A stretch of DNA of 64,000 nucleotides from an uncultured Planctomycetia bacterium (GCA_964460615.1 CAYWPX010000001.1:49826-113825), one strand, 5' to 3'. Positions 8,056-24,328 are shown, counted from the stretch's first letter. A program made the numbers and translations. The notes: a model not told the origin generated them from the sequence alone.

Positions 8056-8635
8056 AAAACCGAAGGTTTTTATACACAAAAGTTCATTTGTAGATAAGGG
8101 AGCAATTATCGGAGATGGAAGTGCCGTATGGCACTTTTCGCACATATCCAAGGATTCAAAGCTCGGCAAAAACTGCAAGCTTGGCCAGAATGTGTTTGTT
8201 GCCTCCAATGTCTCTATTGGGGATAATGTAAAGATACAGAATAATGTATCTCTGTATGAAGGGGTTACGCTCGAGGATAATGTTTTCTGCGGCCCTTCAT
8301 CCGTATTTACTAATATATTTAATCCCAGGTGCCTTTATCCAAGGAATTCGGCCAAGTTCTACAAAAAAACGCTTGTTAAAAACGGCGCTTCTATCGGGGC
8401 GAATGCAACTATTGTCTGCGGGGTTACTATAGGTGAACATGCGTTTATTGGCGCGGGGTCGGTAGTTACGCGTGATGTTCCGGATTATGGGCTTGTTTAT
8501 GGAAACCCGGCAAGGCTTAAAGGGTGGATGTGCTTGTGCGGTGAAAAACTAAAAATTAATTCCAAAAAAAATACTCATTGCAAATTTTGTGCTAAAGAGT
8601 TTAAATTTGAGAAAGGATTTCTTAAAAAGATATGA
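8045..8635 (+). CDS. hexapeptide-repeat (LbH) sugar N-acetyltransferase (WbpD/WlbB-like) with a C-terminal Cys4 zinc-ribbon tail
   Basis: Repeated [LIV]G-x-x-x-x hexapeptide periodicity. C-terminus CLCGEKL...HCKFCAKEF. Confidence 0.7.
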
Positions 8636-9780
8636 ATACTTCCGATACCAAAAACAAATTAAACAAACATATACCGCTTCTTGATTTGAAGCTTCAGTAT
8701 AAATCAATTAAAAGCGAGATAGATTCGGCGATCCAGAAGGTCGTTGAAGACCAGAATTTTATTATGGGCGAGGATGTCAGGCTTCTCGAAAATGAGATCG
8801 CCTCCTATAGCGGTGTGAAATACGGTATTGGCGTATCAAGCGGGACGGATGCTTTGATACTGGCTCTTAGGGCAATAGGGATAAAAGAGGGCGATGAGGT
8901 TATAACCACGCCTTTTACGTTCATGGCGACTGCCGGGGCAATTTCAAATGTCGGGGCGACTCCTGTATTTGTTGATATTACGCCGGATACATATAATATT
9001 GACTTCAAAAAGATCGAAGCTAAGATCACTAAAAATACAAAAGCTATCATCCCTGTGCATTTGTATGGGCAGTGTGCCGACATGGATGAGATCCTTAAAA
9101 TTGCGAATAAACATAATCTCAGGGTAATAGAGGATTCCGCCCAGTCGATAGGCGCTACTTATAAAGGAAGGCCGTCCTCTTCGATGGGGGATATGGGTTG
9201 TATAAGCTTTTTCCCGAGTAAAAATCTGGGGGCTTTCGGGGATGGCGGCATGGTAGTTACTGATAATGCCGAGCTTGCCGATAAAGTAAAGGTTTTAAGG
9301 GTTCATGGCAGTAAGATCAGGTATATTCATTCCATTATAGGTACAAATGCAAGGCTTGATAATCTGCAGGCAGCAGTTCTAAGGGTAAAGCTAAGGCATC
9401 TCGACGCTTGGGCAAAGAAGAGAACGGAAAATGCCGGGATATATAACGAGCTTTTTAAAAACGTAAATGGCGTTAAGACACCTTATGTTCCCGGTTATAA
9501 CACACACGTTTATCATCAGTACGTGATAAGCGTAGACCCGAAAAAACGCGATATTATTCTTAAGAAATTGGAAGAGAATAATGTTGAAAGCAGGGTATAT
9601 TATCCCATTCCTCTCCATTTGCAGGAATGTTATAAATTTTTGGGGTACAAAGAAGGCGATTTTCCAAATTCTGAGTTTGCAAGCCGTTCGACGCTTGCTC
9701 TTCCGGTATATCCTGAGCTTACAAAAGAAGATATTTCCTTCATAACAGGATTAATAGCCGAATTCCTTTCCAGGTCATAA
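8632..9780 (+). CDS. DegT/DnrJ/EryC1/StrS-family PLP aminotransferase (WbpE/WlbC-like)
   Basis: 382 aa. LLDLK..Y....[26 protein letters not shown] and fold-type I sugar aminotransferase motifs. Confidence 0.8.
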
Positions 9781-9794
9781 TCTGAATGTTTTGC

Positions 9795-9823
9795 TTGACG
9801 GTATAGCTTTGTTTTGTTATTAT
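9795..9823 (+). promoter_or_regulatory. sigma70-like promoter (TTGACG, 17 nt spacer, TATTAT) upstream of the MarR-like gene
   Basis: Hexamers and spacing were read directly from the sequence. An AAGGA RBS lies 7 nt before the ATG at 9843. Confidence 0.45.
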
Positions 9824-9824
9824 A

Positions 9825-9841
9825 TGTTCAAAGGATGAACA
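9825..9841. promoter_or_regulatory. inverted repeat TGTTCA-aagga-TGAACA overlapping the RBS of the MarR-like gene (candidate autoregulatory operator)
   Basis: Perfect 6-bp arms with a 5-bp spacer, ending 1 nt before the start codon. Confidence 0.4.
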
Positions 9842-9842
9842 G

Positions 9843-10202
9843 ATGAACAATAAGACACATGATATTCTGGATTCCGAAAAGACTCTTCATATACTTAAGG
9901 AGATCGAACAGAATCCCCAGGTGACCCAAAGGTATCTTTCCGAGAAATTTGTCATAAGTCTCGGCAAGGTGAATTACCTCATTAATTCCCTCATAGGAAA
10001 AGGCCTTATTAAAGTTAAAAACTTCAAAAACTCCAAAAATAAGCTTGCCTACATGTATATTTTTACACCCGAAGGACTGAAGGCAAAAATCGAAATCACT
10101 AAAAAATTCTTAGAGTGGAAGACCATTGAATACGGAAGAATAAAAAAAGATATAGAAAACTACAAAAAAGAGATCACTGCTTATTCGTCAAAGCCCGAAT
10201 AA
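9843..10202 (+). CDS. MarR/winged-helix transcriptional regulator of the EPS/nonulosonate-associated type
   Basis: 119 aa. Helix-turn-helix region QRYLSEKFVISLGKVNYLINSLIGKGLI. This small regulator class typically heads nonulosonic-acid and EPS loci. Confidence 0.55.
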   Translation: MNNKTHDILDSEKTLHILKEIEQNPQVTQRYLSEKFVISLGKVNYLINSLIGKGLIKVKNFKNSKNKLAYMYIFTPEGLKAKIEITKKFLEWKTIEYGRIKKDIENYKKEITAYSSKPE

Positions 10203-10228
10203 GCCTCAAACCGAAGGAGGCGCATAGC

Positions 10229-11125
10229 ATGCCAAGAAAGACAGTAAAAATAGGAAATAAAACAATAGGGGATGGGTATCCTTGTTATGTTATAGCAGAG
10301 ATAGGCATAAATCATAACGGCTCTTTGGATATAGCAAAAAAACTTATTGATGTTGCCATTGAGTCCGGATGTGACGCTGTAAAATTCCAGAAAAGGACCG
10401 TAGAAATTGTCTATACAGCCGAAGAGCTTTTAAAACCCAGAGAGAACCCATTCGGCACAACCAATGGCGATCTTAAAAGAGGGCTGGAATTCGGGGTCAA
10501 TGAGTATAAAGAAATCGATAGTTATTGTAAATCCAAGGGTATCGATTGGTTTGTATCGTGCTGGGATGAAAAATCGGTTGATTTTATGAAGCAGTTTAAC
10601 CCTCCTTGTTATAAGATCGCCTCCGCGTCTTTGACCGATGAGAATCTTTTAAAACACCACCTTACCACAAAAAAACCTATAATTCTTTCTACCGGTATGA
10701 GCGATATTAAGATGATTGAAGATGCTGTCAAAATATTAGGGGAGGACAATCTTGTTATAATGCACTGCACAAGTACCTATCCGTCAAAGCCGGAAGAACT
10801 TAATCTGAAAGGGATAGAGACTTTGAGGAATAGATTTAATGTTCCGATAGGCTATTCCGGGCATGAGGTCGGGTTGTATACCACTTATGCCTCAGTAATA
10901 TTGGGCGCAAATTCTGTCGAGAGGCACATTACCTTAGACAGGTCAATGTGGGGAAGCGATCAGGCTGCTTCGGTAGAGCCTCAGGGTATGAAAAGGCTTG
11001 TAGCTGATATAAGGACGTGGGAAGCGGCGAAAGGTGACGGTGAAATAAAGATTTATGATAGCGAAATCCCTATAATCCAGAAACTTAGAAGAGTGAATTC
11101 AAAGTCGGGGGTTTTATCAAAATAG
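10229..11125 (+). CDS. NeuB-family nonulosonic-acid (sialic/pseudaminic/legionaminic-type) synthase, apparently lacking a full C-terminal SAF domain
   Basis: CYVIAEIGINHNGSLDIAKKLIDVA..GCDAVKFQKR is the canonical NeuB TIM-barrel N-terminus. It is 298 aa, against about 335-350 for NeuB, PseI and LegI. Confidence 0.8.
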   Translation: MPRKTVKIGNKTIGDGYPCYVIAEIGINHNGSLDIAKKLIDVAIESGCDAVKFQKRTVEIVYTAEELLKPRENPFGTTNGDLKRGLEFGVNEYKEIDSYCKSKGIDWFVSCWDEKSVDFMKQFNPPCYKIASASLTDENLLKHHLTTKKPIILSTGMSDIKMIEDAVKILGEDNLVIMHCTSTYPSKPEELNLKGIETLRNRFNVPIGYSGHEVGLYTTYASVILGANSVERHITLDRSMWGSDQAASVEPQGMKRLVADIRTWEAAKGDGEIKIYDSEIPIIQKLRRVNSKSGVLSK

Positions 11126-11129
11126 TAAG

Positions 11130-12326
11130 GTGAAAAAAATGATCGATGCAGATTTGAAAATAGATTTCCCCGGGGTTCAGACAAGGCTTCTCGCCGAAGA
11201 AGAAAAAAAGGTAATGGAATGCATCCATAACGCCAGGGTCTTAACGATGGGGCCATACCTCAAAGAGTTAGAGAATAATTTTGCAAAGTATTTAGGTGTG
11301 AAATACGCTCTGGGGGTCAATAACTGCACTTCCGCTTTGGAATTAGCGGCTATGATAATTAATCTAAAAGAGGATGACGAGGTTATTATACCGGCGCATA
11401 CTTTTACCTCGAGTGCCATCCCGTTTTTAAGGCTAAAATGTAAGATCGTATTCGTTGATATAGACCCTAAAACTTTCGTCATGTCTATGGATGATATTAA
11501 AAAGAAGGTGACGAATAAGACCAAGGTTATTATGGCTGTGCATCTATATGGGCTTATGGCTCCGATGAGAGAAATTTCAAAATTAGCCAAAGAAAGAAAT
11601 ATAATAATTATTGAGGATGTTGCCCAGGCACCCGGCGCCGAAATTGACGGCAAAAAATCCGGCGCTTGGGGGGATACGGCATGTTTTAGTTTCCATAGCC
11701 AGAAAAATATAACAGCTCTTGGCGAAGGAGGGATGATTACTACCAATGACGAGAGTTCTTATGAAAGTATTCTGGGCTTAAGAAAAATAGGAAGTAAACC
11801 CTATAATAACCAGGAGTTTTACTGGAAGCCGGCGATGACAAATATTATCGAGGCCCTTCCGGGAAGAGTGCCTTACAATTTTGCCTTGCCTGAACCTAAT
11901 GCCTGTGCCGCTAATTCAATACTTCTGAGGCTCGACAAGGTTAATAATACAAGATTTGAACAGGCGAGGCTTATAAAAGACTCTCTATCAGAATTCAAGG
12001 AACTGGAATTTCAGGAGATACCCCCTGGATACAAGCACGTGTATCATCTATTAGTGGCTCGCTATACCTCCGGGACCAGCCACAGGGACGATCTTATAGA
12101 GCTTTTATATACCAAATATGGCATCAAATGTGTTGTACAGTATAATCCTCTTTATAATTATGATCTCTTTATTAAAAACGGCTATACCAAAAAGACATGC
12201 CCGGAAGCGGACAGGTTTTTTGGCAATATGATATCGTTTCCATTCTGGTCGGATATGCCTAAAGAAGACATAGATTATATAATTAATTCCACCAGAGAAG
12301 CGATCTTAACTTTGAGGAAAAAGTAA
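11130..12326 (+). CDS. DegT/DnrJ/EryC1-family aminotransferase (PseC/LegC-like)
   Basis: 398 aa, PLP sugar aminotransferase motifs (NCTSALELAA, FSFHSQKNITALGEGG). Confidence 0.75.
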   Translation: MKKMIDADLKIDFPGVQTRLLAEEEKKVMECIHNARVLTMGPYLKELENNFAKYLGVKYALGVNNCTSALELAAMIINLKEDDEVIIPAHTFTSSAIPFLRLKCKIVFVDIDPKTFVMSMDDIKKKVTNKTKVIMAVHLYGLMAPMREISKLAKERNIIIIEDVAQAPGAEIDGKKSGAWGDTACFSFHSQKNITALGEGGMITTNDESSYESILGLRKIGSKPYNNQEFYWKPAMTNIIEALPGRVPYNFALPEPNACAANSILLRLDKVNNTRFEQARLIKDSLSEFKELEFQEIPPGYKHVYHLLVARYTSGTSHRDDLIELLYTKYGIKCVVQYNPLYNYDLFIKNGYTKKTCPEADRFFGNMISFPFWSDMPKEDIDYIINSTREAILTLRKK

Positions 12327-12327
12327 T

Positions 12328-13125
12328 ATGGCCTTAAATGGTTTAGCATGCGTAAATGTAGAACTCACATCAAGATGCAATAAAAAATGCTGGATGTGCG
12401 GCCGCAGGAAGGTTGATAATGACTATCCGGAGTTAGCGCTTAAATACGGCGATATGGATTTTGATCTGGTTAAAAAAATAGCTAGCTCACTTCCGCCGAA
12501 TATAGTTACGCAGTTCCATAAGGACGGCGAGGCGCTTTTGTATCCACGTTTCGGTGAAGCGGTAAAACTTTTTAAGAATCAAATCAAAAATATCGTTACT
12601 AACGGCAAACTTATAGTAGAAAAGGCCGATGAAATAATCGATAATCTTGATACGATATCGATTTCAGTTTTTGAGGGCGATGAGGAGGCTGACGAGCAGC
12701 TGGAGCTTGTCAAAAAATTTCTTAAGCTAAAAGGTGACAGAAAACCTTTTACGAGCCTCAGGCTTATAGGGGAAGTTGACCCGGCAAAGTATGAGAAATT
12801 AGGATGCCTTATAATTAAAAGAGTCCTTCACGCCCAGATGGGGAGCTATAACTATCGCAAAAAAAATCCTACAATACCCGAAATCGGTATCTGCTGGGAT
12901 TTTCTGCATCATATGTGCATCAATAGGGAAGGCAACGTATCTATTTGCGTGCGTTTTGATCCCAAAGGGCTTGGTATTATAGGAAACCTTGAGAATAATT
13001 CGATTGATGAGATTTGGAATAGCCCAAAACGTATGGAGTGGCTTGAGCATCATAAGCTCGGCAAAAGGTCGGAGATACCGTTATGTTCATATTGTGAATT
13101 TTGGGGAGTTCCGACTTCAACTTAA
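12328..13125 (+). CDS. small radical SAM enzyme with C-terminal SPASM/twitch-like cysteine cluster (BtrN-like size)
   Basis: CNKKCWMC is the CxxxCxxC motif near the N-terminus. Additional Cys cluster CWDFLHHMC...ICVRF...CSYCEFWG at the C-terminus. 265 aa. Confidence 0.6.
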   Translation: MALNGLACVNVELTSRCNKKCWMCGRRKVDNDYPELALKYGDMDFDLVKKIASSLPPNIVTQFHKDGEALLYPRFGEAVKLFKNQIKNIVTNGKLIVEKADEIIDNLDTISISVFEGDEEADEQLELVKKFLKLKGDRKPFTSLRLIGEVDPAKYEKLGCLIIKRVLHAQMGSYNYRKKNPTIPEIGICWDFLHHMCINREGNVSICVRFDPKGLGIIGNLENNSIDEIWNSPKRMEWLEHHKLGKRSEIPLCSYCEFWGVPTST

Positions 13126-13154
13126 AGTTTTATTAAAAATGGAGTCAGCCAATA

Positions 13155-13814
13155 ATGCCAAATTCTAAAAATAAAATAAATCATAGGCCCTATATCCTCG
13201 GTGTAATACCGGCAAGAGGCGGGAGCAAAGGGATAAAAAGAAAAAATATCAAACCTATTAACGGAAAGCCGCTTATATACTGGTCCATTAAGGCTGCCAA
13301 AGAGTCAAAGCTTTTGAGTAGTTTTATTGTATCTACTGAGGATAAAGAGATAAAGTCTGTTGCCCATAAATATGACGCTCTTGTTCTTGACAGGCCAAAG
13401 GAGCTTGCCAGGGATTTTTCTACAACTCTTTCGGTACTTCAGCATATTATAAAGGTTATGTCGTATGTTGATATTATTGTTCTCCTCCAGCCGACATCTC
13501 CCTTAAGAGACGGCAAGCTTATTGATATGGCAATAAAAAAGTTCATCGAAAATAAAGTCGATACCTTAGCGACCGGATATATGTCGTTTGAATATGAATG
13601 GGGCTCAACCCAGAATACGCCAAGACAGAAATTGACCGGATGGTTCTATGATGACGGCAATGTTTATGTACATAAAGCCTCAGCATTAGCTAAAGGTGAG
13701 TGGGTCGGAAAGAAGAAATACCCTCTTGTTATTGACAAAAAATATAATTATGAGATCGATGATGAGATGGATTTTTTGATAGTCGAAACTCTTATGAAAA
13801 GGTTTTCCCGATAA
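13155..13814 (+). CDS. CMP-nonulosonate synthetase (acylneuraminate cytidylyltransferase family, NeuA/PseF/LegF-like)
   Basis: ILGVIPARGGSKGIKRKNIKPINGKPLI, the canonical CMP-sugar cytidylyltransferase N-terminus. 219 aa. Confidence 0.8.
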   Translation: MPNSKNKINHRPYILGVIPARGGSKGIKRKNIKPINGKPLIYWSIKAAKESKLLSSFIVSTEDKEIKSVAHKYDALVLDRPKELARDFSTTLSVLQHIIKVMSYVDIIVLLQPTSPLRDGKLIDMAIKKFIENKVDTLATGYMSFEYEWGSTQNTPRQKLTGWFYDDGNVYVHKASALAKGEWVGKKKYPLVIDKKYNYEIDDEMDFLIVETLMKRFSR

Positions 13815-13816
13815 AT

Positions 13817-15223
13817 ATGAAAATACTTCTTATATATCCAAATTGCGAAGGTTATGGCAGGATACCTATAGGCCTCTCATTGATATCCGCAAGTCTAAAA
13901 AAGGCAGGGCATGAGGTCAGGCTTTTTGACCTGACGTTCAAGGTAAGCCGCAATATTGATAATGAAGAGCGTGAGGCGATCGGTACTGCCAAAAAAGTTG
14001 ATACGCTTTCTTATTGGGGAGAGGTTACAAATTCTGATATACATCAGGAATTAAAAGAGCTTATAGGTGAATATAACCCTCGCCTTGTGGGCATTACTCT
14101 TATTCAGAATAATTACTGGACAAGTGTAGACCTATTAAAAACTATCCGCAGCGTCAGTGACGCGCATATTGTAGCAGGCGGAGTATTTTCGACGGTTTCC
14201 CCCCAGATACTCCTAATGGATAACCTTGTTGATAGTGTTATTATGGGAGAGGGCGAGATAGCTTCTGTGGAGCTGGCCAAGAGGATCGAAGCGCATAAGG
14301 ATTATAGAGACGTCAGTAACCTTGCATACCTTAAGGACGGTAAAGTTATCCGCAATCCGATACTTGGCTATGTAAAGCTGGATGATATCCCGTTCCAGGA
14401 CCTCAGCATCTTTGACGAGAGACATTTTATGAAGCCTTTTGACGGCAGAATGGTGAGGGCGGGTTACGTTGAGCTTACAAGGGGATGCCCCTTTAGCTGC
14501 ACATACTGTGTAAATTATTTTCTTAATGAAGAACTTTATTCACACGAGACAAAGCATATAAGGTTCAGGGATCCTGAGAATTCAATCAATGAGATAAGGG
14601 AATTAAAAAGTAAGTATAATTTTAATTTCATATTTTTTACCGATGAAAATATTCTGGTGCTTCCCTATAAGGAACTCAAAAAATATGCCGAGCTTTGGAA
14701 TAAATATATCAAGCTTCCTTTCTATGTGACAACAAGGGTTGAAGTAGCTACTGAAGATAAAGTGAGCCTTTTAAGGGATATGGGCTGCGCGACAGTTGCT
14801 TTTGGGATAGAATGCGGAAATGAAAAATACCGAAGAGAGATGCTTACAAGGCTTACCACAAACGCCCAGATAATAAAGGCTTTTAAGCTATGCAAAAAAT
14901 ATGGCATTAGGACCACCGCAAATAATATGTTCGGCTTCCCTTATGAGACCGAAGATCTGATATTCGACACTATAAAATTAAATATAGACGCTGATCCCGA
15001 CAGTTATTCACTCAGCATATTCGCTCCTTATATAGGTACAAAGCTCCACGAGATCTGCCTTAAAGAGGGTTACATAGAGCCCGGGATACCGCGTAAGATC
15101 TCCATGATAGATGAAAGCATATTGACTATGCCTCAGCTTAGTAAGGATAGGATCCGCGAGCTTTACGCTAATTTTGTAAAATACGTTTCAAAAGAGATCG
15201 CTATTCCAAAAGAGTATCAGTAG
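13817..15223 (+). CDS. cobalamin(B12)-binding-domain radical SAM protein, class B, paralog 1
   Basis: N-terminal Rossmann-like B12-binding domain (KILLIYPN...IGLSLISASL), then GCPFSCTYC as CxxxCxxC. 468 aa. Confidence 0.8.
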   Translation: MKILLIYPNCEGYGRIPIGLSLISASLKKAGHEVRLFDLTFKVSRNIDNEEREAIGTAKKVDTLSYWGEVTNSDIHQELKELIGEYNPRLVGITLIQNNYWTSVDLLKTIRSVSDAHIVAGGVFSTVSPQILLMDNLVDSVIMGEGEIASVELAKRIEAHKDYRDVSNLAYLKDGKVIRNPILGYVKLDDIPFQDLSIFDERHFMKPFDGRMVRAGYVELTRGCPFSCTYCVNYFLNEELYSHETKHIRFRDPENSINEIRELKSKYNFNFIFFTDENILVLPYKELKKYAELWNKYIKLPFYVTTRVEVATEDKVSLLRDMGCATVAFGIECGNEKYRREMLTRLTTNAQIIKAFKLCKKYGIRTTANNMFGFPYETEDLIFDTIKLNIDADPDSYSLSIFAPYIGTKLHEICLKEGYIEPGIPRKISMIDESILTMPQLSKDRIRELYANFVKYVSKEIAIPKEYQ

Positions 15224-15259
15224 AAATAGATAATCATTAAAGAAGAGGGGAAGATAAAA

Positions 15260-16786
15260 GTGCAAAAAGTGAATAAAAATTCAAATAAAGATTTTAAAGT
15301 GTTGTTCATCTATTATAACCCGCGCAAAATGTCCTTGGTCCCGCCTTCTATCGCGCTTTTTTCAAGCTTATTAAAATCAATAGATGTAAAAGTGGATCTA
15401 TTTGATACAACACTTTACGAAAAACAGGATAATCTTGATTCTGACGCTATTGAAGAGAAAAATCTTACCGTAAAACCTTTTTCCGAGAGCCTAAATGTCA
15501 CTAAAAAGGTTAATTATCGAAGTGCCGATATAGCTGGCGACCTGGATAGCCTGATAAAAAGCTTTAAGCCGGATCTATTAGCGGTAACAGCAGTGGAAAG
15601 TACGTTTGAAGGGAGTATTGCGCTTTTAAAAAAGATCCGTCATCATAAGATCCCTACAATTATCGGAGGGGTTTTTGCAACATTTGCCCCGGAGATCGTA
15701 ATATCATATCCTGAAATCGATATGTTATGCATCGGAGAAGGTGAGAAGGCGATCATAGAGTTAGTTCTAAAGATGCGCGAAGGCAAGGATTATTCGGATG
15801 TAACCAATCTGTGGGTAAAAAAGCAAGACGGCTCAGTTATTAAAAATCCTATAGCGAGGTTAGTTAGTCTGGACGAAAACCCCCTCCCTGATATGTCGAT
15901 TTTTGAGGACTCAAGGTTTTATAGGGCGATGGGCGGCAAGATTTATAAGATGTTCGCTGTGGAGACGCATAGAGGATGCATATTTAGCTGCGGATTCTGC
16001 AATTCGCCTTTACAGAATAGGTTCTACAAGGAAAATACAAATCAGATATATTTTCGCCACAAATCCATCGAGAAGGTCAAAGAAGAGATCGACTATTATG
16101 TAAAATTAGGCGCCGAGTATATTTTTTTATGGGCGGACAATTTTTTTGCATATCCTGACAAGTTGATTGATGAATTCTGTGAAATGTATAAAGAGTATAA
16201 GCTGCCTTTTTATTGCCAGTCTCACCCTGAGAATCTTAAAAAAGAGAGGATCCTGAAGCTTAAGGAGATCGGGATGCAGCGTATCGGCATAGGTATTGAG
16301 CATGGCAATGAGGATTTCAGGAAAAGGGTAGTCAATAGAAACTACACCAATGCTATGCTTATAGAGCGTCTTAAGATGCTTACGGACCTTGGTGTTGAAT
16401 ATAGCGTAAATAATATAATAGGATTTCCTGAAGAGACGCCGGAACTTGTCATGGACACTATTGAGCTTAATCGCCAGCATACGGCAAGTGACATAAGCTG
16501 TTCGATATTTACCCCTTTTCACGGGACACCTTTAAGAAAACTGGCGCTTGAAAGAGGTTATTTGAAAGATCCGGAGCTCATTGCGCCGTCAAATGCCGAT
16601 TCGTCGGTTCTTGTAATGCCTGATTTCAGTCAGGATGAGATATTAGGTAAACAGCGTACATTTATTTTTTATATCAAATTTCCGAAGGATCGCTGGGGCG
16701 AGATCAGTAAAGCAGAAAAATTGACTCCCGAAGGTGACAGGATATGGGCGAGACTCAGAGAAGAGTTCGTAAAGACGTATCTATAA
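15260..16786 (+). CDS. cobalamin-binding radical SAM protein, class B, paralog 2 (GTG start)
   Basis: VLFIYYNPRK...SIALFSSLL B12-domain, then GCIFSCGFC. 508 aa. A GAGGGGA RBS precedes the GTG start. Confidence 0.8.
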   Translation: MQKVNKNSNKDFKVLFIYYNPRKMSLVPPSIALFSSLLKSIDVKVDLFDTTLYEKQDNLDSDAIEEKNLTVKPFSESLNVTKKVNYRSADIAGDLDSLIKSFKPDLLAVTAVESTFEGSIALLKKIRHHKIPTIIGGVFATFAPEIVISYPEIDMLCIGEGEKAIIELVLKMREGKDYSDVTNLWVKKQDGSVIKNPIARLVSLDENPLPDMSIFEDSRFYRAMGGKIYKMFAVETHRGCIFSCGFCNSPLQNRFYKENTNQIYFRHKSIEKVKEEIDYYVKLGAEYIFLWADNFFAYPDKLIDEFCEMYKEYKLPFYCQSHPENLKKERILKLKEIGMQRIGIGIEHGNEDFRKRVVNRNYTNAMLIERLKMLTDLGVEYSVNNIIGFPEETPELVMDTIELNRQHTASDISCSIFTPFHGTPLRKLALERGYLKDPELIAPSNADSSVLVMPDFSQDEILGKQRTFIFYIKFPKDRWGEISKAEKLTPEGDRIWARLREEFVKTYL

Positions 16787-16806
16787 TAGAAGAAATTAAC
16801 GGCTAA

Positions 16807-18618
16807 ATGAATCTAATTTTCCTTGAAGAGATTGAGCAGATCGATAGTGTAGCCGGATTACTTAAAGCTGGTTACAGGGCCGTTGCCTTTACGCCGAAAG
16901 TTGTGCATGAGCTGGAAAAAAAAGGGATCGCTTACCTTCGGCCGGAGGATTACTATGATAATGACGCTTTGCAAAGAGAATGGACAGGTTATTATGATCT
17001 ATCCTGGAAGATCATCCGTTCTTTAGACGACGAGCTATTAAGTAAAACTGATGATTTTGATCTGTCGAAACTGAAGATAAGGCCTTTGGAAGCAAATGCA
17101 CAGATGTTTTTTAATATGTTTCGCCAGATCGTTATCAATATCTATATCCTAGAAAAGATCTTTGAAAAGGAATCGCCAAAAAAAGTTATTTACCCGGAAG
17201 AGATCCCCGATAAGTTGACATACAGGCTATATTTTGAAGATGAGTCGGTGGTTTCTTATCTTGTTCCTATCTTTGCCAAGATAAAAGGTTTTGAGGAAGG
17301 ATCCTTCAGTTGGCAAAAAACAGTTGTTTTGCCGGGGATCAAAAGAAGCGAACTCCCGTCTATTAGAAAATTTATCAGGGAGTCTTTATTAAGAGTAGCG
17401 GGCCATTTTAAGCATAACCCTAATAAGAGATCCATATTGGTTTTTCATAATGGGTATGATTTGAATTATATAATACCGCTGCTTTTAAAAAAGGGCCATA
17501 AGGTCATTGATTTTGAGGCATTTTTAAAGAATACTAAGAAGGTATCTGAAAGAGCATATTATCATCTCGTCTTTTCCAAGGATAATAATTATGAAAGTCT
17601 TTTTGAATACAGATCGGTCAACTTTTTCCCACTTGTTAAAACAAGGCTTGCTTTTTATCTGGACAATGTTCTGCCGGGGTATATCTCTTTAAAGCATGAT
17701 CTGGAAAAATTATTAAAAAGATCAGATATTCTTATCGGAGGGCATAGCCCGTCAAGGGTATACGAGAATATCCTTTGCGCTTTGGCAAAAGACAGGGGTA
17801 TTAAGGTCGTTTCATTCCAGCACGGTGGGTACGGGGAGAGATTTAACCATATTCTTCATGTGAATGACTTTGATAATCCTTTGTGTGATTATTTTCTATC
17901 CTGGGGAGAAGGTGTAAAGAGGTATGCAGTAAAATACAACCTTAACCGGATAAAGATCATACCGGTCGGCTCCGCCTGGCTTGACAGCCTTGCGATAAAA
18001 AACCATCATGAGGGATCGGCTGATGATAGCATTAAAACTATTCTTTATATACCTACATCTTTGAGAGTAAAGCCGAGATCCAGGATGCTTCCCGGCGAGT
18101 ATTCGGATAATACCTATTATGATCTTCAGAAAAAAATTATTTCGTCGGTTGCTAAAGATCCTAATGTCAAATTGTTAGTTAAGCTTCACCCGGGGGATGA
18201 GGCGGTTAATCCAATAATAGATTTTATAAAAGAGGCAAATCTTAATAACTGTTCGATCGTGTATGGAGAGCTTTCGAGGTGGTTTGAGGGTTCGGACCTT
18301 GTTATTTCGGATTTTATGTCGACGACCCTATTAGTGGCTTTGAGCATGAAAAAGAACGTATTTTTTTATATAGATAGTACGGCAATGCTTCTTGAAAGAG
18401 ACGCCCGGGCGATGATCGACAAAGCTGCTTATACCTTTACAAGTATCAATGATTTTTTGGGATCGATATCCGATTATGTAGATTCACCCGGCAAATTTCC
18501 CAGAAAGACCGGTGATGAGTTCATAATTAATTACGGTACATATATGAATGACGGACAAAGCGGAAAAAGGGCGGTTGAGGCGATCGAAAAAATATTTCCG
18601 GGGGCCAGTTTAAACTGA
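16807..18618 (+). CDS. hypothetical protein, possibly a GT-B-like transferase (TagF or capsule-biosynthesis-like C-terminal half); candidate nonulosonate transferase
   Basis: 603 aa and soluble. Only weak resemblance in the C-terminal region (GGHSPSRVYENILCA...VSFQHGGYGE; DLVISDFMSTTL). The assignment comes mainly from position after the CMP-sugar genes. Confidence 0.3.
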   Translation: MNLIFLEEIEQIDSVAGLLKAGYRAVAFTPKVVHELEKKGIAYLRPEDYYDNDALQREWTGYYDLSWKIIRSLDDELLSKTDDFDLSKLKIRPLEANAQMFFNMFRQIVINIYILEKIFEKESPKKVIYPEEIPDKLTYRLYFEDESVVSYLVPIFAKIKGFEEGSFSWQKTVVLPGIKRSELPSIRKFIRESLLRVAGHFKHNPNKRSILVFHNGYDLNYIIPLLLKKGHKVIDFEAFLKNTKKVSERAYYHLVFSKDNNYESLFEYRSVNFFPLVKTRLAFYLDNVLPGYISLKHDLEKLLKRSDILIGGHSPSRVYENILCALAKDRGIKVVSFQHGGYGERFNHILHVNDFDNPLCDYFLSWGEGVKRYAVKYNLNRIKIIPVGSAWLDSLAIKNHHEGSADDSIKTILYIPTSLRVKPRSRMLPGEYSDNTYYDLQKKIISSVAKDPNVKLLVKLHPGDEAVNPIIDFIKEANLNNCSIVYGELSRWFEGSDLVISDFMSTTLLVALSMKKNVFFYIDSTAMLLERDARAMIDKAAYTFTSINDFLGSISDYVDSPGKFPRKTGDEFIINYGTYMNDGQSGKRAVEAIEKIFPGASLN

Positions 18619-20177
18619 TGCAACTAAAAAAGGTTGATTCTGTAAGAAAGAGGTACCTCGTCACGCTCTTTAGCAACGTAGTCTTATTCATGGCGAGCAT
18701 TGTAACTGCCGGTATTGTCCCTAGGGCGCTGGGGCCTAAAGAGCTAGGGGATTTCGGTTTTTTAAACCGCGTTTCCAGTTCATTCAGAAATATGCTTGAT
18801 ATGGGTACGTCAAGCGCTTTTTTTAACCTCAATTCCAAAGAGGAAAAGACAGGTTCTTTAGTAAAAGCTTACTCGCTCTGGTTTTTGTTCCAGTTAGTAT
18901 TGATAATAAGCCTTATTATCTTGGCATTCTTGATAGGGATAAAGGATCTTATCTGGCCGGGCCAGGAGCTAAAATACATAGTCTGGGTAGCCGTTTTTGA
19001 CTGGGTATTTTTCTCGGCAAGCTTATTAAGACAGCTCGGCGACAGCAAAGGCCATACGACAAATGCGCAGTTAATAAATCTGGTTATAAGTATCTTAAAT
19101 ATTGTTGTTTTAGTTTTTTTTGCGCTTAAAGGATTTTTAAATATAGGCTTTTACATAGCCATCCAGATATTCAGTTCTGCGCTTATTTCGTTATTTATCA
19201 TGTTATTTGTAATAGCCCCCCACAGGGATATTTACTGGGATGGTAAAATCACCGATCACTTAAAAGGGACGATCAAATACTTCAAAGAATTCTGTTCGCC
19301 GCTAGTTATGATAATGATCGTGAGTTTTATTTTTGAGTATTTTGACAGGATGTTCTTGCAGAGGTTCGGCGGGTCGGTAGAGCAGGGGTATTTTCATATT
19401 GCCTCGAGTTGGGCGACATTTTCAACGCTCTTCACAGCATCGTTCCTTTCGATATATAAAAGGGAGGTTGCTTATTCTTTAGGCGGTAATGATAAGCTAA
19501 GGGCATCCGAGATCTTTAGCAAGTACATTAAGATGCTTTACTTTATCACATTGACATTGGCGGTTTTATTGGCTTTTAACGCTAAAGAGTTATTGGAGCT
19601 TATTGCCGGGCCTAAATTCACTCCGGCTACTATGGTCTTATTTTTGATGGCTTTTTATCCTATTCACCAGGTCTATGGGCAGCTTGGCGGGGCGACATTC
19701 TATTCGACTGAAAGGACAAAGGCTCTTAGGAATATTCAGATTGTCGGGATGCTTCTTGGGATAGGGTTAACATATCTATTTTTAGCCCCCTCAACATTAT
19801 TAATACCGGGGCTTGGAATGGGTTCAGTGGGGTTGGCTTTTAAAACAGTTTTATTGAATATTATTATAGTTCAGGTGTATTTAGTTTCTAATTGCAGGTA
19901 TTTTAAAATAAGCCCTAAGCCATTTTGGGTCCATCAGATATATACGGTTTTGATTTTATTTGTTCTGATGGTGGTTTTAAAATGGGCGGTATTCTTTTTT
20001 ATCGGCGGAGTTTCACCTTTGGTTATTTTTGGAAAGCTTGCGCTTTTGGCATTTTTGTATTTTGTTCTTATATTTATTATGATCTATTTTTTCCCGCATA
20101 TTGCGGGTTTGAAAAAGGAAGAGATTGATTTCGTGCTTGATAAGATAAAGGCGGTCTTAAGGTTTAAAAAGGCCTAA
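18618..20177 (+). CDS. polysaccharide-biosynthesis/MOP-superfamily membrane protein (Wzx-like flippase)
   Basis: 519 aa, about 14 hydrophobic segments, with a charged N-terminus followed by repeated TM helices typical of Wzx/MATE-like exporters. Confidence 0.55.
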   Translation: MQLKKVDSVRKRYLVTLFSNVVLFMASIVTAGIVPRALGPKELGDFGFLNRVSSSFRNMLDMGTSSAFFNLNSKEEKTGSLVKAYSLWFLFQLVLIISLIILAFLIGIKDLIWPGQELKYIVWVAVFDWVFFSASLLRQLGDSKGHTTNAQLINLVISILNIVVLVFFALKGFLNIGFYIAIQIFSSALISLFIMLFVIAPHRDIYWDGKITDHLKGTIKYFKEFCSPLVMIMIVSFIFEYFDRMFLQRFGGSVEQGYFHIASSWATFSTLFTASFLSIYKREVAYSLGGNDKLRASEIFSKYIKMLYFITLTLAVLLAFNAKELLELIAGPKFTPATMVLFLMAFYPIHQVYGQLGGATFYSTERTKALRNIQIVGMLLGIGLTYLFLAPSTLLIPGLGMGSVGLAFKTVLLNIIIVQVYLVSNCRYFKISPKPFWVHQIYTVLILFVLMVVLKWAVFFFIGGVSPLVIFGKLALLAFLYFVLIFIMIYFFPHIAGLKKEEIDFVLDKIKAVLRFKKA

Positions 20178-20188: not shown

Positions 20189-21805
20189 ATGAATAAATCT
20201 GCTAAACTAAGGGAGTTATTTAGAAAAGGTAATATCGTAAAGGTCATGGGTTCGCACGATGCGCTTGGCGCAAAATTGGCGGAAAATAGCGGGTTTGACG
20301 CTGTATGGGCAAGCGGCCTTGAGATATCCACGAGCCACGGCGTTCCTGATGCCAATATCCTTACAATGACCGATTTTCTTGACGCGGCAATTTCGATGAA
20401 TGAGGCAGTATCCGTACCGGTGGTTGCCGATTGCGATACTGGTTTCGGAAATTCCAATAATGTAATACACATGGTAAAAAAATATGAAGCGGCGGGCATT
20501 GCGGCTGTCTGCATAGAAGATAAACATTTCCCTAAAGTAAATAGTTTTATTCCGGGCAGGCAGGAGCTTGCGCCTATATCGGAATTCGTAGGAAAGATCT
20601 TGGCCGCCAAGAATGCCCAGTCTACCAAGGATTTTATGGTAATAGCGCGGGTCGAAGCGCTTATAGCCGGCTGGGGAATGGAAGAAGCTCTTAAAAGAGC
20701 CAATGCCTATAGAGATGCCGGAGCCGATGCTATCCTTATACACAGTAAGGCAAAGGACCTTAAAGAGATAAAAGAATTTATTTCTAAATGGAAAAACCGG
20801 TTGCCTTTAGTTGTTGTCCCGACCACATATTATAAAGTCAGCGCTAAAGAGCTTGAATCGATCGGTATAAAGATGGTTATATATGCCAACCAGGGTATGC
20901 GTGCATCAATTAAGGCTATGAGCGATACATATTCCGAGATTATAAGATCCGGCTCGACTGCTTCTATTGAAGATAGTATTGCATCGATGAAAGAGGTTTT
21001 TGAACTCCAGGGAATGACCAAGATGAAGGAGAACGAACTTATTTATTCCGATACTGATACCGATAAAGTTACAGCAATAATTCCTTCCGCCGGAGACCAT
21101 CTTGAAGAATATTCTATGAAGGAGATCTCTAAGGATATACCTATTTCTATGATAGATATAAACGGTAAGCCGCTTCTCCAGAGGCAGCTTGAAGTATTGA
21201 ACCGCTCTAAGGTATATGATGTAAGGGTTGTTGCCGGATACAAGAAAGATAAGATCAACGTTGAGGGAGTAAAGATAGTTTCCAATGACCTCTACAAAAA
21301 AACAGGGATACTTTTTTCTATCATGAAGGCACTTGAAGAAGTGAATTCAAAGGTTTTTATCAGTTATGGCGATGTCATTTTTGACCACATTATTTTTAAC
21401 CGATTATCCGAAAGTCCCAAGGATATAACAATATTAGTAGATAAAACATATGAGGACAAAAATTACGGCCCGGAAAAAAAGATCGATTTTGCCAATGTAA
21501 AAGCCAACCATCCGGGCTCCCAGAGAGTTCTCAACTCTCATTCTATAAAGGTTGTTACAAAGATAAGCCGCAGCGGCGCTGCCTATGAATTCCCGGGTTT
21601 GACATTCCTTTCTTCCAAAGGAGTAAGCATAATAAAAGAGATTTATAAAAAGAATAAACATAGGCTTCTCAGTAGCGGGCTGGGGGATATACTAAATCTT
21701 GCCATAAAAAATGGTTATGAGGTCTCTGCGATAGAGGCTAATTCGGGTTGGATGGAGATACATTCTCTTGAAGATTATAAACTGGCGTGCAAATTAGTGA
21801 GATAA
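20189..21805 (+). CDS. pepM: phosphoenolpyruvate phosphomutase fused to a C-terminal nucleotidyltransferase (Fom1/PntC-like PepM-cytidylyltransferase)
   Basis: N-terminal VMGSHDALGAKLAE..GFDAVWASGLEISTSHGVPDAN and EDKHFPKVNSFIPGRQ match PEP mutase. The C-terminal about 250 aa (AIIPSAGDHLE...INGKPLLQRQLEVL) is a nucleotidyltransferase fold. Confidence 0.85.
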   Translation: MNKSAKLRELFRKGNIVKVMGSHDALGAKLAENSGFDAVWASGLEISTSHGVPDANILTMTDFLDAAISMNEAVSVPVVADCDTGFGNSNNVIHMVKKYEAAGIAAVCIEDKHFPKVNSFIPGRQELAPISEFVGKILAAKNAQSTKDFMVIARVEALIAGWGMEEALKRANAYRDAGADAILIHSKAKDLKEIKEFISKWKNRLPLVVVPTTYYKVSAKELESIGIKMVIYANQGMRASIKAMSDTYSEIIRSGSTASIEDSIASMKEVFELQGMTKMKENELIYSDTDTDKVTAIIPSAGDHLEEYSMKEISKDIPISMIDINGKPLLQRQLEVLNRSKVYDVRVVAGYKKDKINVEGVKIVSNDLYKKTGILFSIMKALEEVNSKVFISYGDVIFDHIIFNRLSESPKDITILVDKTYEDKNYGPEKKIDFANVKANHPGSQRVLNSHSIKVVTKISRSGAAYEFPGLTFLSSKGVSIIKEIYKKNKHRLLSSGLGDILNLAIKNGYEVSAIEANSGWMEIHSLEDYKLACKLVR

Positions 21806-22859: not shown

Positions 22860-22860
22860 T

Positions 22861-24327: not shown

Positions 24328-24328
24328 A

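Follow-up and report, generated by a model that had tools for sequence, protein, structure and literature searches.

Which sugar is made by a gene block that joins a NeuB-family synthase to three radical SAM enzymes, and do these enzymes belong to the core of the pathway or only decorate its product? The block lies at 9795-20177 of the 64,000-nucleotide stretch of DNA analysed here (the window). It is a regulator-led gene block predicted to make, tailor, transfer and export a sialic-acid-like sugar.

Layout, promoter and operator of the block

The following features were located in the block:

9795-9823, + strand: sigma-70-type promoter (TTGACG, 17-nt spacer, TATTAT, TG extension)
9824-9841, no strand assigned: candidate palindromic operator ATGTTCA-N5-TGAACA, an inverted repeat located 3′ of the -10 hexamer and 5′ of the MarR start codon (9843)
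9843-10202, + strand: MarR family EPS-associated transcriptional regulator, 119 aa (MarR_EPS; TIGR04176, 123.7 bits vs. a cut-off of 88)
10229-11125, + strand: NeuB-family ulosonate synthase, 298 aa (PF03102, 262 bits)
11130-12326, + strand: DegT/DnrJ/EryC1 aminotransferase, 398 aa (PF01041, 313 bits; under all equivalog cut-offs)
12328-13125, + strand: twitch-type radical SAM enzyme, 265 aa (Radical_SAM plus SPASM)
13155-13814, + strand: CMP-ulosonate synthetase, 219 aa (CTP_transf_3, 85 bits)
13817-15223, + strand: B12-binding radical SAM enzyme B12a, 468 aa (B12-binding plus Radical_SAM, CX3CX2C)
15260-16786, + strand: B12-binding radical SAM enzyme B12b, 508 aa (B12-binding plus Radical_SAM, CX3CX2C)
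16807-18618, + strand: LIC12162-family GT-B-fold protein, 603 aa (PF27859, LIC12162; precomputed match)
18618-20177, + strand: Wzx-like flippase, 519 aa (Polysacc_synt, 47.5 bits vs. a cut-off of 28.2)

All nine reading frames named in the original prediction were thus recovered on the + strand with matching domains, and the promoter and operator that it had claimed are both present. The promoter sits in the gap 9781-9842, with TTGACG at 9795-9800 and TATTAT at 9818-9823. Promoter-like matches over 9-24.5 kb occur at chance level (47 found vs. 43.5 +/- 8.2 expected); taken alone, the site is notable only for its position in this gap. The two elements are supported because their architecture is conserved in six loci including the window: in L085, L101, L164 and L165/L166, the same -35/-10 pair is directly followed by ATGTTCA-N5-TGAACA 5′ of the MarR gene. 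Across these five other loci, where the MarR proteins show 42-72% identity, the half-sites are unchanged and only the spacers differ. MarR homologues lead the same module in L084-L086, L101, L107, L164 and L165. The MarR protein, the presumed repressor of the block, would bind the operator.

The synteny of the whole block is retained in L165 and L166 (48-80% identity). At its 3′ end we found neither a terminator nor a gap, terminator-like matches being at chance level; a PEP-mutase gene starts only 11 bp further on, and in L165 to L167 the synteny continues past the block into phosphonate genes. The description of the module as self-contained therefore holds for the 5′ end only, while its reading as a module for an ulosonic acid (NulO type), complete with a regulator, promoter and operator of its own, is supported. 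The phosphonate cluster directly 3′ of the block carries its own B12 radical SAM gene, and the window as a whole is rich in such genes, with five in 64 kb.

The synthase, the small radical SAM enzyme and their genomic linkage

Judged by its sequence, the NeuB homologue is a true PEP-condensing synthase of the NeuB family: the catalytic, metal-binding and PEP-binding residues are all conserved when compared to N. meningitidis NeuB. The idea that it could instead be a KDO-8-P synthase failed on these residues and on the PF03102 match. Profile classification, proposed in advance as a way of assigning it to a clade, placed it in the NeuB family, but it scores under both the NeuB and the PseI equivalog cut-offs. 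A domain search found no SAF domain in it. Compared with the human NANS sequence, it showed 36% identity and a NANS-like loop, a likeness that serves as a lead only.

The genomic context of the family suggests that the substrate is probably a sugar phosphate and the product of the Kdn-9-P type. Among 80 NeuB-anchored genome loci, a phosphatase gene lies directly 3′ of the synthase gene in 53, and a radical SAM gene is present in only two. The phosphatase reaches 121 bits on the KdsC-phosphatase subfamily model (cut-off 107) and does just as well on the model for KDN-9-P phosphatase. The radical SAM-linked NeuB homologues nest among the phosphatase-linked ones and keep the basic loop R56, R71, K83 invariant; in the phosphatase-linked proteins the loop is invariant or carries one or two substitutions. 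A point against the Kdn-9-P scheme is that neither the window nor any of 80 radical SAM-anchored loci yielded a KdsC-like phosphatase for the presumed 9-phosphate.

The small radical SAM enzyme bears the CX3CX2C motif at C17/C21/C24 and exactly four more invariant cysteines (189/207/253/256, spacing 18/46/3), three of which align to C187, C232 and C235 of BtrN. BtrN is the best PDB sequence match of its profile (E = 3.5e-11) and the top match in a fold search (TM 0.63/0.68), followed by SpeY; the structure model used is of moderate confidence (pLDDT 76.6), with residues 167-188, beside the first auxiliary cysteine, disordered. BtrN carries out a two-electron carbinol oxidation and has a four-Cys auxiliary cluster (PMC9012708). 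The small enzyme is probably a carbinol-to-carbonyl oxidase acting on the ulosonate and standing in for an ordinary alcohol dehydrogenase. The hints on the oxidised carbon conflict: class III omega-aminotransferases and Fe-ADH point to a terminal position, and BtrN, SpeY and SDR-type loci to a secondary carbinol.

To describe the linkage, we used a radical SAM-anchored set of 80 metagenomic loci from uncultured anaerobes, including 19 whose flanks reach 5 kb or more in both directions. NeuB accompanies the small radical SAM gene in 58/80 loci (19/19 of those with sufficient flanks) and a CMP-synthetase in 53/80 (18/19), counts to be read with the fact that such loci are not phylogenetically independent. 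The three genes occur in five of six possible orders. The radical SAM gene is thus obligately linked to NeuB and CMP-synthetase in genomes. Since the NeuB homologue is not of the KDO-8-P type and neuB and the radical SAM genes are conserved together, as the original prediction expected, its nonulosonate reading withstood both of the observations by which it could have fallen. Most radical SAM loci also hold an aminotransferase (class III, class IV or DegT; 13 of the 19 well-flanked loci) or an SDR in the cluster, often adjoining the CMP-synthetase. We propose that in the block this partner of the radical SAM oxidase is the DegT aminotransferase, whose orthologues show 66-72% identity in L085, L090 and L165 and 48% in L164. 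The CMP-synthetase matches PseF best among NCBIfam models (127 bits vs. a cut-off of 206), with KdsB-like scores of at most 59 bits; CTP_transf_3 was also found fused to radical SAM/SPASM (P0380) and to an LIC12162 domain (P0249).

A natural cassette swap was observed in L164, a close relative. Its flanks are orthologous (MarR 72%, B12a 76%, B12b 72%, transferase 45% identity), and the cassette between them encodes CTP_transf_3 fused to a KdsC/KDN-9-P-phosphatase-like domain (best score on the KDN-9-P phosphatase model), a mannose-6-P-isomerase cupin fused to NeuB, DegT, and an Fe-ADH in the place of the radical SAM gene. Because the Fe-ADH beside DegT replaces it there, the small radical SAM enzyme is marked as core and not decorating. 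About 9 kb downstream, L164 has another, only distantly related radical SAM/SPASM gene (26% identity), so the swap cannot be read as a clean loss of radical SAM enzymes. The 22 kb covered in L164 contain no phosphonate cluster. GFO_IDH_MocA and acetyltransferase genes accompany the module in both L164 and L165. An Fe-ADH plus aminotransferase logic is that of Kdo8N synthesis by KdnB and KdnA (PMC5125639). The comparative data indicate that the small radical SAM enzyme is a core pathway enzyme and not a late tailoring one, since the amine would be introduced once the aldol condensation is complete: the radical SAM enzyme would oxidise the product, which would then be transaminated.

The B12 pair matched no characterised family. 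B12a reached no NCBIfam equivalog and matched AprD4 best in the PDB (52.6 bits); AprD4 is a dehydratase, not a methylase. B12b likewise reached none, with TokK as its best PDB match (45 bits). Co-conservation, expected in advance, was borne out for both, whose orthologues occupy the same positions in L164 and L165 (69-76% identity). B12a is 76% identical to its orthologue in L164, 69% in L165 and 62% in L085, where the position is again unchanged; B12b shows 72% in L164, 69% in L165 and 47-53% in L089, L091, L158 and L162. In L093, L107 and L158, B12 radical SAM genes lie interspersed among the core genes. The pair may be tailoring enzymes, most likely for C-methylation, though other chemistry is possible. 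The 603-aa protein gave no match in a local Pfam profile search, PF27859 coming from precomputed annotation. Its C-terminal part shows weak matches to TIGR04331 (LIC12162) and the BFO_1060 transferase family, far under the NCBIfam cut-offs, and it has a KLHP motif; by fold, 2-epimerases matched as well as transferases. Its family suggests a probable CMP-sugar-dependent transferase. The flippase orthologue in L165 is 58% identical.

Proposed pathway and its alternatives

From the domains, the conserved promoter and operator, the radical SAM linkage, the BtrN-like sequence, cysteines and fold, and the Fe-ADH swap, all observed directly, we consider it on balance likely that the block encodes a non-canonical route to a CMP-activated amino-deoxy ulosonic acid, the amine being added after condensation by the radical SAM and DegT enzymes. 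The SAF-less, NANS-like NeuB homologue would join PEP to a hexose-6-phosphate (most likely mannose-6-P), giving a 3-deoxy-nonulosonate of the Kdn-9-P type. The 265-aa twitch enzyme would then take a hydrogen from a hydroxyl-bearing carbon of the sugar or its CMP form to give a carbonyl, in the manner of BtrN and SpeY with their cyclitol substrates, and the adjoining DegT aminotransferase would convert this carbonyl into an amine. The cytidylyltransferase would form the CMP-sugar before or after these two steps, and the two B12-binding enzymes would modify the sugar further, most likely by C-methylation. Finally, the GT-B LIC12162-family protein would join the sugar to an acceptor, and the Wzx-like protein would flip the lipid-linked unit. 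Every chemical step, the identity of the aldose, the oxidised carbon and the way in which the 9-phosphate is removed are inferred.

A canonical 5,7-diamino NulO (Pse/Leg type) or Neu5Ac, with the missing steps encoded by other genes of the locus and the role of the three radical SAM enzymes confined to decoration of the completed sugar, appears improbable. The best NCBIfam matches are indeed NeuB/PseI for the synthase, PseC for DegT and PseF for CTP_transf_3, yet all are well under the equivalog cut-offs. Close by are several SDR epimerase/dehydratase genes and a hexapeptide acetyltransferase that matches the NeuD family (102 bits), and the GFO_IDH_MocA and acetyltransferase genes move with the module in L164 and L165. 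However, no gene of NeuC, PseG or LegG type was found anywhere in the 64 kb, and the original suggestion that the dehydratase, N-acetyltransferase and hydrolysing 2-epimerase are supplied from elsewhere in the locus is accordingly not supported. The frame at 34475-35539 was rejected as a hydrolysing NeuC (75 bits vs. a cut-off of 236); it is a non-hydrolysing WecB-type epimerase (322 bits vs. 210) and the only Epimerase_2 gene. The genes at 7036-9780 resemble those for WbpB/WbpD/WbpE, the enzymes that produce a 2,3-diacetamido sugar. The core of the 80 radical SAM loci recurs without a recurrent acetyltransferase (one hexapeptide match, no GFO match), and only 6 of the 19 well-flanked loci contain NAD-dependent epimerase/dehydratase-family genes. 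The radical SAM gene is, moreover, as obligate there as the CMP-synthetase, and in L164 it gives way to an Fe-ADH beside DegT. A synthase forming an octulosonic or ten-carbon ulosonic acid (PEP plus pentose-5-P or heptose-7-P), then aminated, is quite improbable. GmhA-like SIS isomerases (gmhA, 169 bits) in 12 radical SAM loci, SIS-phosphatase fusions in six phosphatase-type loci, and the failure of the synthase at both NulO cut-offs would suit it, but the window has no SIS gene, the CMP-synthetase scores as PseF/NulO-type above the KdsB models, and L164 fuses NeuB to a mannose-6-P isomerase domain and has a phosphatase scoring best on the KDN-9-P model.

In a variant of the same pathway, unlikely but to be taken seriously, the twitch enzyme would not be a plain dehydrogenase but an eliminase or deoxygenase acting on the 9-phosphate ester or a vicinal diol. 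Radical beta-elimination or oxidative dephosphorylation would do the work of the KdsC-type phosphatase as well as that of the dehydrogenase, and the resulting keto-deoxy sugar or aldehyde would be transaminated or SDR-reduced. The mutual exclusion of phosphatase and radical SAM genes in the loci counted above speaks for it, as do the nesting of the radical SAM-linked synthases with their basic loop kept, the presence in L164 of a phosphatase plus Fe-ADH where the window has the radical SAM gene only, and the SDR-type loci, which fit elimination followed by reduction as in AprD4 and AprD3. Nevertheless, BtrN and SpeY, the nearest relatives that have been characterised, are plain dehydrogenases, a housekeeping phosphatase may be encoded elsewhere in the genome, and the 72-76% identity of the B12a/B12b orthologues between L164 and the window suggests the same product from both cassettes; plain oxidation is therefore favoured. 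That the radical SAM genes are mere bystanders of the adjacent phosphonate pathway or of an unrelated process, in the glycan locus by chance, is very improbable indeed. The adjoining phosphonate cluster, which includes a B12 radical SAM gene, and the five such genes in 64 kb would allow it, but for the small enzyme it is largely refuted by the presence of NeuB in 19/19 loci, in five gene orders and mostly without phosphonate genes. B12a and B12b orthologues are likewise kept in L164 with no phosphonate cluster in the 22 kb covered, and the interleaving in L093, L107 and L158 also speaks against it.

Comparison with known systems

With the canonical PseBCHGIF, LegBCHGIF and NeuCBA pathways, the preferred route of post-condensation amination shares the family types of synthase, aminotransferase and cytidylyltransferase and a CMP-activated acidic sugar for surface glycans. 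It differs in that the block has no NDP-sugar 4,6-dehydratase, hydrolysing epimerase or hydrolase, every equivalog cut-off failed, and the amine is proposed to be added after condensation and not before it. The Kdn/animal 9-phosphate pathway (NANS plus NANP; Bacteroides KDN-9-P synthase and phosphatase) resembles the block in the KdsC/KDN-9-P-type phosphatases and PMI domain of relatives; the block itself lacks a SAF domain and a phosphatase, and oxidation, transamination and B12 radical SAM reactions are proposed for it in addition.

GenK, Fom3 and TokK are cobalamin-dependent radical SAM enzymes acting on sugars or phosphonates. These class B enzymes and the AprD4 dehydratase have in common with B12a and B12b an N-terminal B12-binding-type domain and a radical SAM core, but the PDB matches (AprD4, TokK) are weak and no equivalog was reached. 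The 603-aa protein resembles Tannerella Tanf_01245/BFO_1060, Leptospira LIC12162 and GT-B proteins of the TagF/TarL type by its BFO_1060/LIC12162 model matches, PF27859 and KLHP, although it scores far under the NCBIfam cut-offs and the 2-epimerase fold match is equally good. The Tannerella proteins are genetically required for Pse or Leg addition (PMC5420450).

In Shewanella Kdo8N synthesis, the KdnB Fe-ADH oxidises a completed 3-deoxy-ulosonic acid and the KdnA aminotransferase then puts an amine onto it. L164 has the same pair of enzyme types, Fe-ADH plus DegT, the likeness to KdnB being at the family level; the window differs by having a radical SAM enzyme and no Fe-ADH, a NeuB-family synthase in place of KdsA, and a backbone of probably nine carbons. 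Closest to the pair in the block are BtrN-BtrS (butirosin) and SpeY (spectinomycin), where a twitch radical SAM dehydrogenase is likewise paired with a DegT-family aminotransferase. The likeness comprises a length of about 250-300 aa, CX3CX2C plus one four-Cys auxiliary cluster of equal spacing, and an adjoining DegT gene, and the conversion of alcohol to ketone to amine without NAD may be shared by analogy. The differences are the identity of only about 19%, an aminocyclitol there vs. a predicted acidic ulosonic sugar or CMP ester here, and an antibiotic cluster there vs. a cell-surface glycan locus with NeuB and CMP-synthetase here. The radical SAM route looks like an unreported version of a known kind of pathway.

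The gene block and its flanks

The window is a single long co-directional glycan locus of about 39% G+C; the closest named homologues come from Candidatus Omnitrophota, and an Rfam scan of the window gave no match. The nine open reading frames described in the original prediction as a nonulosonic acid module were all found at 9843-20177, with domains matching the description.

Genes of the block (window coordinates)
9843-10202, + strand, MarR_EPS regulator (TIGR04176, 123.7 bits vs. a cut-off of 88)
10229-11125, + strand, NeuB-family protein, 298 aa, without a SAF domain (PF03102, 262.2 bits vs. a gathering cut-off of 22.1)
11130-12326, + strand, DegT aminotransferase
12328-13125, + strand, Radical_SAM + SPASM protein, 265 aa
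13155-13814, + strand, CTP_transf_3 cytidylyltransferase (PseF-like matches outscore KdsB-like ones)
13817-15223, + strand, B12-binding radical SAM protein B12a, with a CX3CX2C motif
15260-16786, + strand, B12-binding radical SAM protein B12b, with a CX3CX2C motif
16807-18618, + strand, 603-aa protein (unmatched in the local Pfam copy; PF27859, LIC12162, by precomputed match)
18618-20177, + strand, Polysacc_synt flippase

The 62-bp gap 5′ of the MarR gene bears TTGACG, a 17-nt spacer and TATTAT, with a TG extension. Since promoter-like matches across the region do not outnumber those in shuffled sequence, the consensus match by itself proves little. The −35/−10 pair, followed directly by ATGTTCA-N5-TGAACA right before the MarR start codon, recurs in the relatives' loci L085, L101, L164 and L165/L166, where MarR identity is only 42-72%; among these loci the half-sites are invariant and the 5-nt spacer varies. 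It is this conservation that allows us to accept the claimed promoter and operator as real, and the MarR protein presumably binds at the candidate palindromic operator. A MarR_EPS gene heads the glycan module in several loci. The view of the module as self-contained holds at the 5′ end, with its own regulator, promoter and operator, and fails at the 3′ end, which is undelimited: the flippase and PEP-mutase genes are 11 bp apart, with no convincing terminator between them.

A phosphonate cluster (20189-28007) lies directly 3′ of the flippase gene.

Phosphonate genes within 20189-28007
Fusion of PEP mutase with an NTP-transferase domain (TIGR02320, 338 bits, above the cut-off)
Split phosphonopyruvate decarboxylase
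B12 radical SAM protein of the Sden_1168 P-methyltransferase type (352 bits, below the cut-off)
AEP transaminase
Second nucleotidyltransferase
CDP-alcohol phosphatidyltransferase
Methyltransferase

The same gene order stands 3′ of the LIC12162 and flippase genes in three relatives (L165, L166 and L167), which suggests that the same glycan may carry a methylated aminoalkylphosphonate decoration. The rest of the window encodes glycosyltransferases, methyltransferases, further B12 radical SAM proteins, MBOAT and asparagine synthase proteins and a second flippase. Given two Polysacc_synt flippase genes (18618-20177 and 56637-57941) and an initiating Glycos_transf_4 gene (62854-63894), the locus may build two different lipid-linked units.

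A SAF-less NeuB family and its radical SAM partner

In a profile alignment with 2wqp/1xuu, the NeuB homologue was identical at E25, K53, Q55, K129, S132, S154, Y186, S213, H215, E234, H236 and D247 (N. meningitidis numbering), i.e., at the catalytic Glu, the metal-binding His and the PEP-binding Lys and Ser residues, which are invariant or nearly so in 141 family members. With its catalytic, metal and PEP residues all kept, it belongs to the true NeuB family and is not a KDO-8-P synthase. Like PseI, it carries S for N. meningitidis N184. The protein scored below the cut-offs of both the N-acetylneuraminate synthase equivalog TIGR03569 (255.5 vs. 399.65) and the pseudaminic acid synthase equivalog TIGR03586 (210.1 vs. 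340.25). Moreover, no match to the C-terminal SAF (antifreeze-like) domain was obtained, and the 298-aa protein stops just past the barrel, whereas in the typical NeuB family this domain supplies Arg314 to the sugar site. SAF-less “environmental” NeuB proteins have been recorded in a published survey with no function assigned (PMC8208679). This family (~290 aa) is very widespread and strongly conserved (59-82% identity among the matches listed), with members in Omnitrophota, Nitrospirota, Chloroflexota, Acidobacteriota, Melainabacteria, Saccharibacteria and others. Neu5Ac synthesis is probably not the function of the SAF-less proteins annotated as “N-acetylneuraminate synthase family proteins”.

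Three features bear on the substrate. A conserved basic loop, PRENPFGxTNGDLKRGLEF, follows β2 in the SAF-less NeuB family, where R56, R71 and K83 are invariant or nearly so. Across a gap of two residues it presumably aligns with the human NANS loop; the overall identity of 36% is a lead only. The human loop has been tied to phosphosugar use in a published paper. Furthermore, a gene for a ~160-aa protein lies directly 3′ of NeuB in 53 of the 80 NeuB-anchored genome loci listed, and its product passes the cut-off of the KdsC-phosphatase subfamily, with an equal score on the KDN-9-P phosphatase model. Taken together, the basic loop, the adjoining phosphatases and the NANS-like alignment suggest that the NeuB homologue would condense PEP with a sugar phosphate. 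Among the NeuB-anchored genome loci (L004-L083), those of the phosphatase type include six with a KdsC-like phosphatase::GmhA-like SIS isomerase fusion. Many loci also encode an acetolactate-synthase-like TPP enzyme, an RfbH-like DegT, a glucose-1-P cytidylyltransferase and a xylose-isomerase-like TIM-barrel protein, signs of additional, uncharacterised sugar chemistry in the surroundings of SAF-less NeuB.

The family of the 265-aa radical SAM enzyme comprises 1,727 sequences at E ≤ 1e-5 (90% identity level) and forms a compact group at the 50% clustering level; among the matches listed, identity is 66-83%, and the few source-named homologues are from Omnitrophota, Parcubacteria and Nanoarchaeota. 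When genome loci were anchored on NeuB, the radical SAM gene appeared in only 2 of the 80 listed (relatives 59-71% identical), and the apparent refutation of the linkage was overturned by the reverse scan from the radical SAM gene. This profile scan of metagenomes gave 80 loci, with NeuB in 58 and CTP_transf_3 in 53, the misses being mostly on short contigs. Where at least 5 kb was available on each side (n = 19), every locus had NeuB, 18 had the CMP-synthetase, 14 a B12 radical SAM gene and 13 an aminotransferase gene. The co-conservation that the original prediction had set as a check is thus borne out, and the linkage is one-directional: the radical SAM gene is always near NeuB, while NeuB often stands with a phosphatase instead. 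The three core genes (NeuB, radical SAM and CMP-synthetase) were seen in five of their six possible orders, so that the linkage exceeds frozen synteny. This recurring core is usually clustered with an aminotransferase (class III, class IV or DegT) or an SDR and is often accompanied by a class I methyltransferase; one protein, P0380, is a CTP_transf_3::radical SAM::SPASM fusion. In a neighbour-joining tree, the radical SAM-linked NeuB homologues fall into at least two groups, one nested among the phosphatase-linked ones.

A clean KdsC phosphatase profile found no match in the window or in any of the 80 radical SAM loci and gave 149 bits for the positive control, L164. The matches first obtained in radical SAM loci were an artefact of six phosphatase::SIS fusions in the profile and were gone after cleaning. 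A recurrent set in Saccharibacteria and Omnitrophota (L011, L002/L091, L089) comprises NeuB, the radical SAM enzyme, the CMP-synthetase, a class III aminotransferase, a glyoxalase/VOC protein, possibly an epimerase, and one to three methyltransferases. In L001 (1617-2803), from a second assembly of the same sequence at low coverage, DegT is called as 278- and 95-aa pieces, probably through a frameshift introduced in assembly rather than as a true pseudogene.

The family alignment shows an invariant CX3CX2C triad (C17, C21, C24) and exactly four more invariant cysteines (189, 207, 253, 256), which indicates a single putative auxiliary [4Fe-4S] site with four Cys ligands, of the twitch type rather than a full SPASM domain (seven or eight Cys). 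The best solved relative of the family profile is BtrN (E = 3.5e-11), whose product is transaminated by the DegT-family BtrS. Cys 207, 253 and 256 align to BtrN C187, C232 and C235, and the 18-residue spacing of the first auxiliary Cys pair is identical in the two proteins. BtrN was also the top fold match (4m7t, E = 9.7e-10, TM 0.63/0.68) of the AlphaFold model (pLDDT 76.6); the twitch radical SAM dehydrogenase SpeY ranked fourth, and the epimerase EpeE was also near the top. BtrN, which has an auxiliary cluster with four Cys, oxidises an aminocyclitol carbinol by two electrons (PMC9012708). The aminotransferase or SDR usually encoded in the cluster and the iron-type alcohol dehydrogenase (Fe-ADH) substituting in the relative L164 lend indirect support to a predicted role of the radical SAM enzyme as a carbinol-to-carbonyl oxidase. 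NCBIfam has no model covering this family, a compact new twitch family of ~265 aa whose genomic context sharply narrows the candidate substrate. More generally, the small “MoaA/SPASM” proteins adjoining SAF-less NeuB are probably neither cofactor nor peptide maturases.

Cassette exchange and the origin of the sugar

The informative relatives were reached through homologues of the 603-aa protein. L165, L166 and L167 are syntenic with the window (identity 48-80%) and share the order MarR, NeuB, DegT, radical SAM, CMP-synthetase, B12, B12, LIC12162 and flippase, followed by the phosphonate genes. In L164 the flanks are orthologous (acetyltransferase 74%, upstream DegT 68%, MarR 72%, B12a 76%, B12b 72%, 603-aa protein 45%) and the cassette is different: it encodes two fusion proteins, one of a CMP-synthetase with a KdsC/KDN-9-P-phosphatase-like domain and one of a mannose-6-phosphate-isomerase cupin with a NANS-like NeuB (34% identical to that of the window), a DegT (48% identity to the window DegT) and, exactly in the place of the radical SAM gene, an Fe-ADH. 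Because both cassettes feed the same conserved downstream enzymes, the simplest reading is that they make the same or a very similar CMP-sugar. The hexose would then be mannose-6-P and the backbone Kdn-type, the phosphatase step would be present in the non-radical version, and the radical SAM enzyme and the Fe-ADH would be equivalents making the carbonyl for DegT. The exchange supports both the mannose-6-P substrate with a Kdn-type backbone and the functional equivalence of the two putative oxidases. Since the natural Fe-ADH counterpart predicts the reaction, the function of the radical SAM enzyme is directly testable in vitro.

The swap carries a caveat. Downstream in L164 (15218-20637) lies a second gene set with CTP_transf_3, a 327-aa radical SAM/SPASM protein, a HisC-like aminotransferase, a methyltransferase, a 2-hydroxyacid dehydrogenase and an epimerase. 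Its radical SAM/SPASM member is a distant homologue, sharing 26% identity with the small radical SAM enzyme of the window, and scores 63 bits on spiro-SPASM TIGR04321. The theme of a cytidylyltransferase, a SPASM radical SAM protein and an aminotransferase seems broader than the small radical SAM family.

The proposal that the canonical Pse, Leg or Neu upstream steps are supplied elsewhere in the window did not stand. Neither a PseB/LegB 4,6-dehydratase nor a PseG/LegG/NeuC hydrolysing epimerase or hydrolase was found in 9795-20177, the SDR genes elsewhere in the window scored below the PseB and LegB cut-offs, its sole Epimerase_2 gene is WecB-type and not NeuC, and 7036-9780 resembles WbpB/WbpD/WbpE. 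Family scores, together with absence from the 80 related loci, led us to reject both 8045-8635 as the nonulosonate N-acetyltransferase and 34475-35539 as the hydrolysing epimerase. A GFO_IDH_MocA oxidoreductase gene and a hexapeptide acetyltransferase gene (WbpB/WbpD-like; window 3869-9780, L164 1-1720, L165 1898-3485) accompany the MarR/NeuB module among the three closest relatives and are missing from the 80 radical SAM loci further away; in L165 the MarR-led unit includes both, with no WbpE-like aminotransferase to go with them. In the sublineage of the window they may be part of the ulosonate pathway.

Proposed tailoring and transfer, and comparison with known systems

B12a and B12b matched PF02310 (50.5 and 41.1 bits) and PF04055 (85 and 93 bits), with CX3CX2C at residues 224 and 240, respectively. 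All of their NCBIfam matches were far below the cut-offs and assigned neither to a characterised subfamily; PDB matches were weak (≤53 bits), the best being AprD4 for B12a and TokK for B12b. In both L164 and L165 their orthologues remain a pair, flanked by the sugar cassette and the 603-aa gene, and other B12 radical SAM orthogroups recur within radical SAM/NeuB loci. The claim that the radical SAM genes form part of the block is therefore upheld, for the small gene by its constant place beside NeuB in the well-flanked loci and for the B12 pair by this conservation. We read B12a and B12b as putative tailoring enzymes; C-methylation would be a guess. Five B12-binding radical SAM genes occur in the 64-kb locus (starting at 13817, 15260, 22861, 28985 and 45333), the last of which (45333-46739) is HpnJ/BchE-like (237 bits, below the cut-off).

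The 603-aa protein, which contains a KLHP motif and folds as GT-B (model pLDDT 82.5), was considered as a NeuC-like epimerase, in line with fold searches that placed 2-epimerases on top. However, it matches PF27859 and, weakly, the BFO_1060 family, scores equally well against TarL and TagF, is fused in one homologue (P0249, from a radical SAM/NeuB locus) to a CMP-synthetase (CTP_transf_3), and is encoded ahead of the flippase, so that a predicted transferase is preferred. On the family model TIGR04331 it reached 50.4 bits vs. a cut-off of 225. Members of the BFO_1060 family in Tannerella are genetically required for Pse or Leg addition (PMC5420450).

The best-supported pathway would start with a Kdn-type backbone made from a hexose-6-phosphate, which the radical SAM enzyme would oxidise and DegT would then transaminate; CMP activation, tailoring by the B12 radical SAM enzymes, transfer and flipping would complete it. 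A bolder version, which we consider unlikely, is a widespread anaerobe-specific pathway where the twitch enzyme acts on the 9-phosphate ester of a Kdn-type sugar, replacing phosphatase and dehydrogenase by oxidative or eliminative dephosphorylation, and the cobalamin radical SAM enzymes C-methylate or extend the skeleton. If true, it would yield amino, branched or more than nine-carbon acidic sugars without a known counterpart across Omnitrophota, the candidate phyla radiation (Saccharibacteria, Parcubacteria) and Nanoarchaeota.

Major surface determinants include the sialic-acid-like sugars, for which textbooks describe three canonical bacterial pathways. To these the cassette would add a fourth logic, backbone first and amination later by radical chemistry, spread in Omnitrophota, CPR bacteria and DPANN archaea, i.e., in lineages with almost unknown cell surfaces. 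The searchable literature (radical SAM with nonulosonic acid, NeuB or neuraminate synthase; BtrN with sialic acid; CPR/Omnitrophota) and NCBIfam yielded no account of the association. In Kdo8N synthesis, an Fe-ADH oxidase (KdnB) followed by an aminotransferase is established logic (PMC5125639), and a Kdo8N-like pair of Fe-ADH and DegT sits in the swapped cassette of L164. The window system would work alike, by amination of a finished ulosonate as with KdnB/KdnA, but it has no Fe-ADH and is thus not a member of the Kdo8N type.
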